Shown in pieces: positions 1 to 9,000 of a DNA stretch of 26,255 bases. The position numbers are program-made. How positions within the stretch are numbered: position 1 is the first letter of the stretch; each line of letters starts with the position of its first letter. The stretch lies in NCBI GenBank assembly GCA_040256005.1, contig JBDZWC010000001.1, positions 60,305-86,559 of the forward strand. Reading direction: 5' to 3'. Origin of the DNA: Deinococcaceae bacterium (lineage in GTDB: Bacteria > Deinococcota > Deinococci > Deinococcales > Trueperaceae).

Positions 1-3000
1 GGGTACCGGGCGCCGCGCCGGGGTACGCCGGGCGGTGAGGTTCGAGTGTTCCCGGATGCGAGGCAGGTATAGCCTGGTCCGGTGTACGTTCCCAGCCGCT
101 TCCGTGAGGACGACCGTGACAGGCAGCTGGCGTTCATGCGCCAGCACGGCTTCGCGCTCGTGATATCCGCACCGGCGTCTGGTCCGGTGGCGACGCATCT
201 GCCCGTCACCGTGACCGTGGACGGGGGCGACGTGATGATACGAGGACACTTCGCGAAGGCGAACCGGCACTGGCGTGCCCTAGGCGCAGGCGAGACGCTG
301 GTCGTTTTCTCCGGGCCGCATGCCTACGTGTCCCCCCAGCACTACGACGCGGTCGAGAGCGTGCCGACCTGGAACTACCTGGCGGTCCACGCGTACGGGA
401 CGGGACGAACGATCCATGAGCCGGAAGAGAACCTGCGGCTGCTCCGGGAGCTGATCGGTGTGCACGAGCGGTCCTACTGGGCTCGGTGGCAGGAGCTTCC
501 CGAGCGCTACCGACAGGGGATGTTGGGCGGCATCGTCGGGTTCGAGGTGAAGGTCGCTCGCATCGAGGGGAAGGCCAAGCTCAGCCAGAACAAGAGCGAG
601 GCCGAGCAGTGGCGTATCGCCGCGTCGCTCCGGGAGTCGGCGGATCCGGTCAGCAGGGCCCTGGCTGAGGAGATGGAGCGTCGACTCGGCGAGCCGGTGG
701 CGGCAGAGGGGTCTGGCGAAGACACTGCCATCCGCGCCGGTGGGGACTCGCCCTAGGTCGGGCGTTGGCCTGTCGTCTTCAGCCGAAGTGGTAGCCGCGC
801 ACGTGGATGGGACCGGCGATCTCGCCGAGCCTCAACGCCTTGAGGGTGAGCTGGTGGCCGGTGTCCTCGACGACCCCGTCGACGACCAGCATCGAGGCGT
901 CGCGCAGCAGCACGCGCTGCTCGTTCCACAGATCGGGAGAGATGATCACCTGCGCCCGCACGGGACCGTCCTCGAGGACGAAGAACGCGAACCCCTTGGC
1001 CGTGCCGGGCCTCTGGCGGCCCACCACGAGGCCGGCGGTCAGTACCCGTGTCTTGCGGGGGGTCCGACGCAGACGCAGCAGCGGCACGCAGCCGAGCTCG
1101 CGGAGCTGGTCGCGCACCAGGTCGACGGCGTGGACCTCTAGGGTGCTCATGCGCGTGGTCTGGTAGTCCCACACGAACCGCTCGGGGAGCGTCATGCGGG
1201 GCAGCACGGGGGTCGCTACCGGAGCGGAGAACAGCGGCCGCCTCCCCGGCTCCGAGGAGTTCGCCAGCACGCCCGTCCGATAGAGCGCCTCCCGGCGGGG
1301 CTGCACCGCGTCGAAGGCGCCGGCGCGTACCAACGCCTCCACGACGTCCCGCTCCAGAGCGACGCGCTGATGGAGGTCCTCGACCCCGCAGAAGGGACCG
1401 TGGGCCAGCCTCTCGAGCATGATCTCCCGCGCCGCGTCCTCCGAGACGCCCGTGATCCCGGACAGGGGAGGCCGGATGGCCTTGACGGCGCCTCCCTGCG
1501 ACGGTGCGCTGTCGGCGATCCGCGCACCCGGGTGGTCGGGCTCCGGGACGCTGCCTGCTCCGGCGGCCCCTTCCGAGCCGCTGCCCAAGGAGACGCGCTC
1601 CACGCGGAAGTGGAGGCCGGAGCGGTTGACGTCGAAGGGCAGGAACGGGACGCCCCAGTCTCGCGCCTCGTGGCGCTTCGTCTGCCGCGACCACATGCCC
1701 GGCTCCTCGGTGAGGATCGCGGCCATGTACTCGGCGGGGTACTGCACCCGCAGCCAGCCGCTGGCGTAGGCATGCAGCGCGAACGCCCAGGCGTGCGACT
1801 CGGCGAACCCGAACCCCTGGTAGCCCTTCACCGCGTCGAAGACGGTCTCCGCCTCCTCGCGCGTGGCGCCCACGTGGCGCATCGCCCCCTCCACGAAGCG
1901 CCGCCTGTCGGGCTCGATGTCCTCCAGGTCAGCGAAGCCGGACACCTTCTTGCGGAACCTGTCGGCCTCGATCCAGCTCATGCCCGCGAAGTGCACGGCG
2001 ATCCTCAGCACGTCCTCCTGGAACAGCAGCACCCCGTAGCTCTTCGCGAGCACCGGCTCCAGGGAGGGATGCCAGTAGGTGACGCTCTCCAGGCCTTGCC
2101 GCCGGCGCAGGTAGGGGTGGACGGTGCCGGACTGGATGGGCCCCGGCCGGATGAGGGCGATCTGGTGTGAGAGGTCCTTGAGGTTGCGGCTGCGCATCAC
2201 GCGGCTGGTGTGCTGCTGGCTCGGGCTCTCGACCTGGAAGAGGCCGAGGGTCGCCCCCTCGGAGATCAGGTCCCATACGCGTTCATCGTCAGGGAGGTCG
2301 GCGAGGTCGAGCCACACGCCCTCGAGGCGGAAGACCTCTTCACGGGCGCGCTCCAGCGCCGACAGCATCCGCAGACCGAGCAGGTCGAGCTTGATCAGCC
2401 CCATGGCCTCGGCGTCGTCCTTGTCGAGCTGCAGCAGCTTGATGCCGCCGGAGGAGCGCTCCAGCGGCGAGTAGTGGGTGAGGGGATCGCGCGAGAGCAC
2501 GACGCCGCCGGCGTGAGGAGCGATGTGCCTGACGTGCTTGCGCTCCATGCGCTTGAGCAGCGCGATGAACGTGTCCGCCACCGGCGCGTCGCCGAGCACC
2601 TCGCGCAGCGCCACCTCCGCCTTCTCCACGGACGCCGGACGCAGCCCGCGGAAGTCGCGGCCGAGCGCCTTCGTGAGCCGGTTGCGTAGCTCGGGCGGCA
2701 GGCCCAGCGCACGACCGAGGTCCTGCACCGCCAGCGGCAGGCGGTAGGTGATCTTGTTGCAGACCATCGCCTCGGTCGTGGCGCCGAAGCGCTCCTCGAC
2801 CCAGGCGAGCACCTCATCGCGCCGGGCCGAGGAGATGTCGATGTCGACGTCTGGCATGCTCGTCTTCCCGGTGTGCAGGAAACGCTCGAAGAGCAGGTCG
2901 TGCTTGAGGGGGTCGGCCTGCGTCACCCCGAGCAGGTAGCAGACGATGCTCGCCGCCGCGGACCCTCTGCCGGCCGCGAGGATCCCGCGCTGCCGGCAGT

Positions 3001-6000: not shown

Positions 6001-9000
6001 TGAGGGGCGGCCGGTAGGCCGGCGGATGAGAACTGCTGCGGGACATCCCCACGCGTCAGCGGCGCCACCTCGGCCGTGCCGTCGAACAGCGGGACCGCCG
6101 CCGCCGTCACGGCGGCCGGTGTCAGCGGGGCCTTCGTCACGTTGCGAGCCTGCGCCGTGCCCCCCACCCTCCGGCTCACCACCGAGGCGTTGGCGTACGC
6201 GCCGTCCTCGTCAGCGTAGCCACGCCAGCGCCAGACGAGGTCGACCGCCTGGGAGTGCGTGTCTCCCCATTCGAGACGGCGTTGGGCCGTGGGGAAGCGC
6301 TCCAAGGTCGCCTCGAGGGCGCACTGTCTACGCTCGCGCACCGGCCACAACCCCTCCTGCTCGGCGAGCCGCTCGGGCGAGGCGAGCTCCAGGGTGAGGC
6401 GTTCGATGGGTTGCCCGTAGGCGTGGCTGTCCTCCAATGCGAACAGCGCCTGCTGGCGGATGTGGCGTGCCTGTGTCAGGGGCCGCTTGCTCAACCGGCT
6501 CGCGCGCCTGGTGCCGCTGGGAAGGCTGGCCGTGAGCGTCAGGCGGCGCGTCGTGCGACCCCCCAGCTCGCGGGCCAGCTCCCCGGCTAGCCTGTCGAGC
6601 GCCGGCAGGAGGCGCTGGGGCTCGACCACGGGGTCCTCGAAGGCGAGCGAACGAGCGACGGCCGGCGCCGGCTCGAACGGCCGCAGATCGGTGTGGCGGG
6701 GACCGTGTAGGTAGGGGAGGAGAGCATCGCCCTCCGCCGCCAGGTACGAAGAGATCTGGGAGGCGGTCCAGCTGGCGAGATGGGCAGCCGAGGACAGCCC
6801 CAGCCATGTAAGGCGGGTGAGGTTGGCTTCGGACAGGCCGACCCTGCGCAGGAAGCGCAACGGCAAGCGAGCCAGGAAGCCCTTCACGTCATCGACGCGC
6901 CTCACCGTTCCGGGGCGGGAACTGACGGCGGCGAGCTCGGCCGTCTCGCGGTCATGGGCTAGGCCGACGCGGACGCCGTAACGGGCGGCCAGCTCCTCGG
7001 CCTCGACGTCGTCCAAGCGCGCCAGCGCCCTGCCGCGCGCCGCACCCTCGACCCACGGGGTGTGCTGGTTGAGCTCGCGCAGGAGCTCCTCCCAGGCGTG
7101 TTGGAGGTCCGGCTCCGTGTGGGAGACGACCTCGAGGCCCTCGACGCGCATGCGCGCGCCGTCCAGCCGCATACCCGGCGTGATGCCGTGGCGCCTGGCG
7201 GGGGCGTTGGCGTGAGTGACGCGTTCTTCCTGAGCGCTGACGAGGGGTACCCGGGCGAGCCCAGGATCGCTCCTGACGGCCAGGTAGAGGTCCAAGGGAT
7301 CGAAGCAGAGGGACGCGATCATGCGGCGGCCACCCTCACCCTCAGGAGCGGGGGTCGCCCGGCGGGCGGGCGACCGGGACGAGGCGGTATGCCTCGGGGG
7401 CGGACGACCTTCGTTTCCGTGCGTGACGGTGTTAGCATGCGAACGACCTAGTCAGGACCGCGGCAGCGGTCGGATATGGGCGGCGAAAGGACACATTCCC
7501 TTGCTTGGCGGCGGTGGATGTGTCCTTCGTTATCGGTGGGCCAGGATCGCGGGCGTGATGGGCGGTCCCTCAACCACCCCTTTCGAGCAACAGGTCCTGC
7601 ACGACGTCTCCGCGGAGTAGACCGCGCATGACGCCGTCCACGTGCAGCTGCGAGGCTGGGACCGTGAGGGTTGGGTACGCGGGGTTGTGAGGGCGGAGGC
7701 GGTACTGCTTGGGCCTGCTCGAGCGTGCTTTCCACTCGAGGTACTTGAGCGTGGACTCGTCGTCGCCCACCCGAACGGCGCAGACCTCACCAGAGCGCTG
7801 CGGTTCGGCGCGGTGGAGCAGCACGACGTCGCCGTCCTCGATGCGGTCCGCCATGGAGTCGCCCCTGACGCGCAGCGCGAAGTGGTCCGGGCGGCCGCGC
7901 AGGACCAGGTGGCCCTCGGGTTCCGGGTAGCTGCCGATGGGGAGGCCGGCGGCGATCTCGCCGAAGAGCGGCACTCCCGCGTTCACGCCCAGGAGCTTCA
8001 GGCGCGGGGCCCGTCCGGGGCCACGGCTCTCCATGACCAGCTTGCCCTTGGCCTCGAGCGCCTTGAGGTGCTCCCTGAGGGTGGGATAGGTGATGCCGAA
8101 GCTGCGAGCCAGAGCTGAGAGGTCCGGCGTGGTGCCCGCGCGCTCGTAAGCCGCACGCAGCGCGCCCAGGATCTGGTTCTGCTTGACCGGCCGTGGCGGC
8201 ATGGACCCACTCCCTTCGTTACCCTTAGATACTAAGGGTAAGGCACAGGATATGAGCGGGTCGGGTGAGTGTCAAGCGGCAGAAGCCCAGCTGACAAGCG
8301 GCCGCGTTGCTAGATTGGCCCATGGCCGACATGGAGCCGAACGACAGGGAGATCCTCCGACTGGAGCGCAGCTTCTGGTTCAGCGACGCCCCGTTCTACG
8401 AGGCCAACCTGACGGCCGACTGCCGCATGACGTTCCCCAGCCTGGGACTGCTGGACCGCGACCAAGCGATCGCCGGCATAGCAGCGGGCCCACGCTGGGA
8501 CTCGGTTGAGATGCGGGAGGAAAAGGTACAGCGATTGGGGGCAGATGCCGCCGTCGTCTCCTACGCGGCCAGGGCGCGGCGCGGCGAAGAGGTCTACGAG
8601 GCGCTGGTGGGCAGCACGTACGTGTGGGAGAGTGGCACCTGGAAGCTCACCTACCATCAACACACCCCGGTGACGCCCCAGGCAACGAACTAGCTCAGAG
8701 GTCAGCGTCCTCGAGGGCGGCGCCGAGCTTCTCCAGCTCCTCACGGTTGAGCCGCTCCCGCCTCTCGCGCTCGGTGAGGATCGCCCTGACGTCGGCGGCT
8801 TCGATGAGCAGCGGAGCGGCGGTAGATCCGCGCGACGCTACGCCAGCCTCGACCACCATCTCCATCAAGGCGTCCTCTGACACGCCGAGGACCTCGGCGG
8901 CCTGCGCCAGGGTCAGCGGAGGTTCGGCGCTGTCGCGTCGGCGTGCCATCAGGAACAGAGGTTACGCCGGACGGGACCGGGGTAGCCTTCGACCGGTGAA

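Follow-up and report, generated by a model that had tools for sequence, protein, structure and literature searches.

The window analysed here is a stretch of 26,255 nucleotides, the first position of which corresponds to position 60,305 of contig JBDZWC010000001.1 (C132) in our source genome, G000. It harbours a mutagenesis cassette in which lexA, a Y-family imuB/imuY gene and dnaE2 lie in one run, together with the end of the contig (Table 1). Both dnaE2 and lexA scored under their NCBIfam cut-offs, and no imuA match was seen with the cassette. The palindrome that follows the sigma-70-like promoter is a candidate LexA operator, and LexA may control the imuB-dnaE2 cassette. The replication, partition, ligA, polX, polA and lepB parts all precede the window on the contig. 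A preliminary description had placed PolX, SRAP, DinB, a HerA-like ATPase and the lexA-imuB-dnaE2 cassette on this contig, and all of them were found there.

Table 1. Features of C132, in window or contig coordinates as marked
Feature	Position	Strand	Remark
HerA-like ATPase	contig 19216-21657		after better start; only weak TraD likeness
polA	contig 21883-24657		
polX	contig 50130-51872		adjoins ligA
ligA	contig 51898-53946		
Rep3 initiator	contig 54933-56438	-	
parA	contig 57512-58300		
parB	contig 58300-59247		
55-base repeat	window 1..55	.	flanks the 100-N scaffold gap directly before the window (assembler overlap)
dnaE2, error-prone polymerase	window 779..3970	-	NF004225 best, below its cut-off
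AAA_14/DUF4143 ATPase inserted in cassette	window 4143..5378	-	close orthologue in G047 only, among contigs compared
92-aa conserved ORF of cassette	window 5487..5765	-	no family match
imuB/imuY-like Y-family protein	window 5778..7322	-	
Hairpin in the lexA-imuB gap, nearly invariant	window 7487..7531	-	occurs once in G000; nothing matched in Rfam
lexA of cassette	window 7570..8202	-	
Sigma-70-like promoter, then conserved palindrome	window 8219..8275	-	promoter 8275-8247, palindrome 8219-8241
Lipoprotein/esterase gene	window 23952..26255	-	spans the circle junction
Circle closure	window 26201..26255	.	terminal overlap: last 55 bases of the contig equal its first 55

Contig C132 closes into a circle of ~86.3 kb by its terminal overlap, which is unique within the bin (1 of 250 contigs). 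Contigs G047:C5 and G046:C42 cross the junction with the gene order unchanged, and contigs from four other studies continue past the end of C132 unbroken, which concerns continuity only and not sequence. Two further contigs close, G014:C10 by a 55-nt overlap within an intact gene and G015:C9 by a 48-nt overlap with circular permutation; the circles of these relatives measure 73.9 kb and 64.1 kb, so that the three genomes span 64-86 kb. The closed circle that the preliminary description had listed as missing is thereby supplied, on the basis of short-read overlaps at two graph breaks and from a sample consisting throughout of metagenome bins. Terminal overlaps were not found in G013:C18, G046:C42, G047:C5, G048:C1, G019:C1, G056:C65, G017:C84, G078:C2, G068:C6, G076:C14, G109:C96 and G102:C49. 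In G076 the end of C14 and the start of C15 share 77 nt and the halves of polX lie at the other two ends; these share no exact overlap, so a circle of ~256 kb is unproven. The overlaps in G000, G014 and G015, with the relatives that cross the junction, constitute assembly evidence for a separate replicon. No tRNA genes were found on the three circles, and Rfam gave 0 matches over 106 kb of C132 loci.

It is very unlikely that the Rep-ParAB-ligA block is integrated or cointegrated in the chromosome, with a terminal overlap that arose as an artefact of repeats. Such an arrangement would accommodate the scaffold gap of C132 and the location of both breaks within repetitive DNA, the haem and lysine synthesis clusters on G046:C42, the 37 % identical Rep in the single contig of G054, and the g33 contig on which the circle type of ligA (ligA-2) and polX accompany the chromosomal luxS-NYN-BMP genes (no such Rep was found in g33). 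However, the three independent closures fall in different places along the map of genes, G013:C18 and G046:C42 each make approximately one lap in the same order with no ribosomal-protein gene among the matches listed (judged by eye), and the whole block is missing from the closed chromosome of G069.

The replicon carries a plasmid-type apparatus of Rep3 initiator, iterons, ParAB and a parS-like site, and its genes stand, as previously described, apart from the dnaA origin on C73 and from another parAB on C52. Rep3-family iteron replicons include F (RepE), P1 and pPS10, with which C132 shares a Rep3_N/Rep3_C initiator, iterons of ~22 bp, an AT-richer stretch, a second iteron cluster and ParAB with a palindromic site; C132 differs from them in its Rep of 501 aa, which is 24-29 % identical to plasmid-bank Reps among the matches listed. 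By analogy with iteron plasmids, Rep3 would start replication at the 22-bp iteron origin and ParAB would partition the circle at the parS-like palindrome. This palindrome is replicon-specific, occurring in 39 of 39 loci that include parA, and was not found in any of five Rep-less genomes. Depth relative to the gyrA contig, taken from record titles, was 1.06, 0.84 and 1.00 in three bins, a ratio of ~1 being partly built into binning; C132 is probably roughly single-copy, presumably under copy control. In three circles the GC skew reported earlier does change sign close to the origin, though in a lopsided way; in G046 and G076 the change lies off the origin, and the skew was set aside as weak support.

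Rep is single, at 63-90 % identity, in 51 of 127 family genomes, and ligA lies on the Rep contig in 34 of these 51; both earlier counts were reproduced. The Rep tree has 12 of 15 splits in common with that of gyrA and the ligA tree 9 of 11, every conflict having a bootstrap of ≤61, whereas shuffled labels for Rep yielded a mean of 0.3 and a maximum of 4 shared splits. As the Rep and ligA trees follow gyrA, vertical inheritance is indicated, which agrees with the claim of one ortholog across a Trueperaceae clade; the species tree in this comparison is gyrA alone, with 12 close relatives dropped, and kin are not independent. C132 is also chromosome-like in composition (GC 68.3 % vs 69.0 %; tetranucleotide r 0.994), and its codon usage and tetranucleotides fall within the contig range, toward the far end (ranks 31 and 38 of 45).

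These data bear upon whether the circle is that of a different organism, or one that passes freely from host to host, and entered the bin through its similar composition. Bins are all that was sampled, and polA and ligA are foreign in origin, yet we regard this as extremely improbable: the Rep, ligA and lepB trees track the host gyrA tree, matching empty sites lie in host chromosomes, no relaxase or type IV secretion family scored above cut-off among the C132 proteins scanned (all but a few small ORFs), and a search of 72,556 plasmid records gave no close Rep (24-29 % among the matches listed).

In G000 the ligA of C132 is the sole NAD-dependent ligase gene. It is predicted to encode LigA from its Pfam domains (OB, zinc finger, HhH and BRCT), its KxDG adenylation motif (KIDG at 119) and a score of 759.7 bits against the equivalog TIGR00575 (cut-off 444). 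The preliminary description considered ligA and polA to be single and both on C132, which holds for G000, but its wording of an only DNA ligase and an only polA is too broad, because LigD and two Ku genes lie on the chromosomal contig C233 of G000 and six clade genera keep a native polA. Nor were the two genes, which it regarded as captured, taken from the host chromosome; the circle carries foreign copies, and the empty native sites are visible. LigA identities are bimodal (57-94 % vs 41-47 %), and the two types form separate clades, a single clade being rejected (p-AU 0.011); the first ligA tree lost 9 short rows, and from the second 7 near-duplicates, most alphaproteobacterial rows and any that were long or partial were left out. 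In 11 of the 15 outside genomes read, native ligA sits between NYN and BMP, an arrangement seen in 0 of 30 and in 0 of 16 loci from the clade. It is missing from the luxS-NYN-BMP site in every clade locus read (C19 in G000) and is retained in 0 of 67 clade genomes. Sequence and gene order together identify ligA-2 as a foreign copy that displaced the native gene. Among 364 genomes, other Deinococcota families held no close copy (best 48 %); donor searches returned a haphazard set at 37-45 % by pattern and nearest rows of 50-55 % by 50 % clusters. Displacement does not require the circle described here, since G032 and G102, outside the clade, have a ligA-2-type gene as their sole ligase and no close Rep.

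The circle polA nests among Planctomycetota, and its empty native site lies on C51 of G000. It was rejected as a clade-wide anchor because of the six genera with native polA, and it is ligA that ties the clade to the circle. The gene that was captured from the chromosome is signal peptidase I (lepB): it is native, transferred to the circle and left a chromosomal gap behind (C181 in G000), and the circle copy nests among chromosomal lepB; mgsA probably moved as well, in the inner clade. The core content of the circle thus comprises ligA and polA function, a lepB orthologue and mgsA, which single-contig relatives have on the chromosome. HU, FtsH and signal peptidase I were rejected as essential anchors, having paralogues on other contigs; a second S26 peptidase and HU copies stay on the chromosome, so signal peptidase I and HU are no evidence of essentiality.

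G069 is a closed chromosome of 2.92 Mb (100-nt overlap) with 0 matches to PF01653, PF03120, PF01068, PF09414 and PF01051. The earlier figures of 12 ligA-less genomes, 10 of them also without Rep, were recovered (among 128 genomes), although G002 (62 % complete) and G007 (67 %) lie outside the clade and therefore say nothing on the chromid. Within the clade, 10 of 67 bins lack ligA, several of them rated 95-98 % complete. Such bins, the chromosomal LigD-Ku of G000 and a cargo of mostly accessory repair and transport genes would suit a circle that is real but dispensable and truly missing from bins such as G069, with LigD, or a chromosomal ligase that went unrecognised, able to take over from the ligase of the circle. 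We consider this unlikely, as G069, G012, G093 and G095 have no matches to NAD-ligase, ATP-ligase or RNA-ligase profiles (the PF14743 search had no match even in controls and carries no information), and G069, G012 and G093-G095 jointly lack ligA, polX, Rep, circle polA, lepB and mgsA, as for an unbinned molecule. An ATP ligase present in G000 and in 8 of the 11 other genomes from the same genus might rescue, but these enzymes are patchy in the clade (g10 0/3, g23 1/18, g27 0/10), and according to one review bacterial ATP ligases always accompany a replicative NAD ligase (PMC7470946). With ligA as sole copy, the circle would be indispensable to its host. An essential replicon could then be missing from bins with a completeness rating of 97-98 %, one of them closed.

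The chromid concept is reportedly that of Harrison et al. (2010). We consider it highly probable that C132 is an unusually small DNA-repair chromid, essential mainly via redundancy and subsequent loss, plus translocation; the chromid reading of the preliminary description stands, given three closed circles, a closed chromosome without a ligase match and congruent trees. We infer that a foreign polX-ligA pair and a polA of planctomycete type were added to an ancestral megaplasmid of repair genes, and that native ligA (and polX) was afterwards deleted from the host chromosome, in one event or very few, close to the base of the ten-genus clade. The circle would be kept by dependence, because a circle-less cell could not seal its Okazaki fragments. 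Native polA would have been lost later, separately, in some genera, and native signal peptidase I (probably mgsA too) would have moved onto the circle in the inner clade. More broadly, it seems likely that a multi-genus clade with ligase-less chromosomes depends for replication on a mini-chromid (minimum 64 kb) that became essential when the foreign polX-ligA pair displaced the native ligase, addicted by a housekeeping gene and not a toxin, that the circle is a sink for repair and housekeeping genes through both redundancy with loss and translocation, and that the non-essential sister circle G020:C5 shows an earlier stage.

If true, this would clearly exemplify a bacterial chromosome that has no DNA ligase gene. 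Our literature search, with most subscription journals outside it, found no paper describing either a secondary replicon in Trueperaceae or a chromid that holds the sole ligA. It would also be among the smallest chromids: under the definition quoted in PMC7523725 and PMC5716241, the smallest as of 2020 is given in the former as 88.9 kb, and the closed circles here are of 64, 74 and 86 kb. Like chromids in general and pAMI5, the 'primary chromid' of Paracoccus aminophilus (PMC3925955), C132 combines plasmid-type replication and partition with a GC content like that of the chromosome, core genes that relatives have on their chromosomes and cross-genus conservation; it differs in that its core gene is the replicative DNA ligase and in that its essentiality is predicted.

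Core-gene acquisition by chromids is debated, and the evidence is called scarce in a study of Pantoea LPP/pPag1, in which domestication is discussed under redundancy and translocation hypotheses (bioRxiv 10.1101/2024.10.17.618910). Both routes would be readable gene by gene on C132, from the empty sites in the chromosome, intermediates that have two copies and a sister circle that lacks the essential gene. C132 resembles LPP/pPag1 in its vertical inheritance and in plasmid and chromosome homologues that split deeply and were then differentially lost, whereas its displaced gene is a universal replication gene with visible empty chromosomal sites, its polA has a visible donor phylum and a translocated lepB lies on the same replicon. 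Within the Deinococcota, plasmid P1 of Deinococcus deserti likewise carries lexA, a Y-family polymerase, dnaE2 and a second NAD-dependent ligase (PMC2669436), but D. deserti has retained the ligase of its chromosome, which is 57 % identical to that of the plasmid, and represents the redundant stage; no Deinococcus records were among the 40 plasmid matches listed for ligA-2. The sole rRNA operon on a plasmid, reported for Aureimonas and others (PMC10645730), is similarly an essential informational gene long held on a small replicon only; C132 instead holds a protein gene, which is foreign, apparently low in copy and set within a cluster of repair genes.

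Our study revealed that contig C132 (86,559 bp), one of 250 in the source bin (G000; 96.8 % complete), is a real circle; the window covers its final 26 kb. Its last 55 bases are identical to its first 55, a sequence absent elsewhere in the bin, and no other contig of the 250 had a terminal overlap of this kind. The join is spanned by the reading frame of a lipoprotein gene and, with gene order unchanged, by contigs of two other species (G047:C5 and G046:C42); contigs from four other studies also continue in one piece past the end, continuity and not sequence being compared. A single internal gap of 100 N is flanked on both sides by the identical 55 bases, giving a circle of ~86,349 bp. 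Among the relatives compared, mostly Trueperaceae bins, G014:C10 is a closed circle of 73,937 bp (55-nt overlap within an intact oligopeptidase gene) and G015:C9, its circular permutation, closes at 64,054 bp (48-nt overlap). G013:C18 (215 kb) and G046:C42 (157 kb) run for about one lap in the same order without terminal overlap, and G076 would give a putative circle of ~256 kb. The three circles have 35 genes in common, 28 of them also in G013. GC content was 68.3 % for C132 vs 69.0 %, and depth relative to the gyrA contig, taken from record titles, was 1.06, 0.84 and 1.00 in three bins.

These data confirmed the preliminary description of a separate replicon with its own Rep3 and ParAB; dnaA, picked out by its motif, lies on C73, and a second parAB on C52. 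Its counts were also reproduced, with Rep a single-copy orthologue in 51 of 127 family genomes (63-90 % identity), ligA sharing the Rep contig in 34 of these 51, and ligA missing from 12 of 128 genomes, 10 of the 12 also without Rep. The tallies include an unpublished genome, G089, on which alone no claim stands. Repeats spaced by 21-22 bp lie upstream of rep, with a second, inverted cluster beyond parB-bcp, and relatives have comparable clusters. The palindrome GC[CA]ATA-N4-TAT[GT]GC has two copies in G000, each within the rep-parA gap; it was present in 13/13 rebuilt Rep contigs and 39/39 loci that include parA, and in 0/5 Rep-less genomes searched. On the model of iteron plasmids, the repeats would act as origin and copy control, and the palindrome as parS.

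Features of C132 (contig positions unless marked as window positions)
Feature	Position	Strand	Remark
MFS transporter orthologue	12567-13895
mgsA/rarA ATPase	14030-16237	-
signal peptidase I	18280-19212	+
HerA-like ATPase	19216-21657	-
polA	21883-24657	+
dinB	28713-29786	-
HU	33480-33773	+
XerC-like recombinase	42029-43075	-	candidate dimer resolvase
ORF of ~530-600 aa	45827-47623		kept on many such replicons; no Pfam or NCBIfam match
polX	50130-51872	-
ligA	51898-53946	-
SRAP	54267-54932	-
rep	54933-56438	-
iterons	~56545-56674
parS-like palindromes	57054 and 57362
parA-parB	57512-59247	+
bcp	59326-59805	+
second iteron cluster	~59813-60146
dnaE2, inserted ATPase, small conserved ORF, imuB, lexA	window 779-8202
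hairpin between lexA and imuB, ~45 nt	window 7487-7531
lexA promoter and palindrome behind it	window 8219-8275
large TPR/AAA-LuxR-type regulator	window 11648-14098
large TPR/AAA-LuxR-type regulator	window 16367-19042

The ligA of C132 is foreign, and the native gene has been displaced from the chromosome. Family ligases fell into two identity classes against C132 ligA (57-94 % and 41-47 %), which formed separate clades in trees; on a quick tree of 64 rows, a single clade was rejected at p-AU 0.011. PolX splits into the same two classes, and the foreign, polX-linked ligA belongs to a broader clade that also includes Methylohalobius and Nitrospina/Nitrospira-type ligases. A gyrA tree (24 rows) united ten genera (g1, g7-g10, g18, g22, g23, g27 and g33; support 95/86), and in the 67 genomes of this clade, G000 included, circle-type ligA was found in 57, no ligA in 10 and the native type in none, vs native ligA in 57 of the 61 genomes outside. 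Three outside genomes (G113, G118 and G120) have native ligA and a second, polX-linked copy, two (G032 and G102) have the polX-linked type only, and none was found in G002 and G007, bins 62 % and 67 % complete. In 11 of the 15 outside genomes examined, native ligA is flanked by an NYN gene on one side and a BMP lipoprotein gene on the other, with luxS close by. On G000 C19 these two genes are just 145 bp apart; no ligA was seen at this site in 30/30 and 16/16 clade loci (some truncated at contig ends, and G012 counted in both sets), and BMP directly follows NYN in most. In g33, the foreign ligA and polX share a contig with chromosomal luxS-NYN-BMP genes, which counts against a strict link between ligA and the circle.

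Outside the clade, the native site is empty and polX-linked ligA is the sole copy in G102 (L208, C49), where it seems split near residue 542, and in G032 (L209, C163); displacement in both was probably independent of the clade. At three loci (L211, L213 and L349, in G051, G053 and G020) an MFS transporter gene lies between NYN and native ligA, and its orthologue (50-59 %) on the G000 circle hints at past DNA exchange between the replicon and the native-ligA neighbourhood itself.

A chromosome without ligase was represented by G069, a single contig of 2,919,400 bp whose ends overlap by 100 nt within an intact gene. It shows an empty native ligA site and gave zero matches to those NAD-ligase, ATP-ligase, RNA-ligase and Rep3 profiles that were positive in controls. 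From G069, G012 and G093-G095, ligA, polX, Rep, circle polA, the lepB orthologue and mgsA are all missing together, of which an unbinned circle is the simple reading; parB is retained in G092.

The claim that C132 holds the only DNA ligase stands for ligA, with one match in G000, on C132, but G000 also has ligD and a pair of Ku genes (C233:3490-7242, L217), which form an insertion immediately upstream of rpsL-rpsG-fusA (these three names were read from sequence). Within the clade, the occurrence of ATP ligases is patchy. Likewise, the only polA match of G000 is on C132, and its native site on C51 is empty compared with G017 and G014, but the claim does not extend clade-wide, as g7-g10, g23 and g27 retain native polA; among the matches listed, to which 103 weaker rows and a second G043 match did not belong, g1, g18, g22, g33 and g34 had only the foreign type. 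Circle polA encodes a 3'-5' exonuclease domain and is nested among Planctomycetota (closest outside rows 55-57 %). In genus g34 (L233, G112:C2; L234, G113:C1) a planctomycete-type polA adjoins SRAP and is the sole polA; this genus kept native ligA, and Rep of the C132 type was not found in it.

Signal peptidase I is a true capture by the circle. The gene occupies one conserved chromosomal site in six genomes (G121, G062, G051, G020, G038 and G065), but the corresponding site on G000 C181 lacks the gene. In the tree, the circle copy falls within the chromosomal ones as sister to g18/g22/g33. A shorter S26 paralogue remains on the chromosome, so the move need not be essential. The pattern of mgsA is similar, and this gene probably moved likewise.

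Vertical inheritance, as previously proposed, was supported by the Rep tree, which had 12 of 15 splits in common with gyrA (18 genomes; shuffled mean 0.3, maximum 4), and by the ligA tree, with 9 of 11 (14 genomes); every conflict with gyrA had bootstrap ≤61. Outside the clade, G020:C5 is a related contig of 146.8 kb with a 55-nt end overlap (ParA 70 %, ParB 55 %, Rep 30 %) that carries dnaE2 and DinB. No ligA was found on it, G020 retains native ligA, and this replicon likely represents an earlier stage. Ligase redundancy, with a foreign copy beside the native one, would have come first and chromosomal loss afterwards; the circle would then be retained because daughters without it could not join Okazaki fragments.

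The replicon conforms to the chromid definition quoted in PMC7523725 and PMC5716241, as far as its criteria are testable. Essentiality is described as the hallmark of a primary chromid (PMC3925955), and the circle would be one if essential, as we infer. In 2020 a replicon of 88.9 kb was claimed as the smallest chromid (PMC7523725); smaller ones may figure in later or unindexed literature. Plasmid P1 of D. deserti is reported to carry a second NAD ligase and a lexA-dnaE2 cassette, whereas the D. deserti chromosome, unlike that of the clade, keeps its own ligase (PMC2669436). The redundancy and translocation hypotheses come from bioRxiv 10.1101/2024.10.17.618910; the main text of PMC13342612 mentions neither Truepera nor ligase. 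In the literature searched, we found reports neither of a Trueperaceae replicon of the C132 type nor of a chromid that holds the sole ligA.

The cassette in the window is predicted to act as an ordinary damage-inducible mutasome. Behind the lexA promoter lies a conserved palindrome, TTACCCTTA-N5-TAAGGGTAA, which is likely the operator, with sites at G046:C42 ~80973, G047:C5 ~6436, G013:C18 ~50344 and G020:C5 ~114748; its changes in G013 and G019 are paired. On the replicons of relatives, weaker copies adjoin further repair genes, which suggests a LexA regulon local to the replicon. The lexA-imuB hairpin, single-copy in G000, is 95-100 % identical in six other replicons from four genera and had no Rfam match; it is a candidate cis-regulatory RNA or terminator/attenuator. 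A homologue (38 %) of the large regulator at the lower coordinates is present on the sister replicon G020:C5.

Several studies of landfill, solid waste, mixed cultures and soil yielded metagenomes with DNA near-identical to window 20256-26255, so that samples for enrichment or long reads may be obtainable. In part of genus g23 (G076:C14/C15, G071:C4), a low-complexity insertion at about residue 200 of PolX breaks assemblies. The G046 replicon has acquired haem-synthesis and lysine-synthesis clusters (C42, 28-40 kb and 141-146 kb; names read from sequence), whose G000 orthologues sit on contigs other than C132, and it also bears two ARAGORN tRNA calls.
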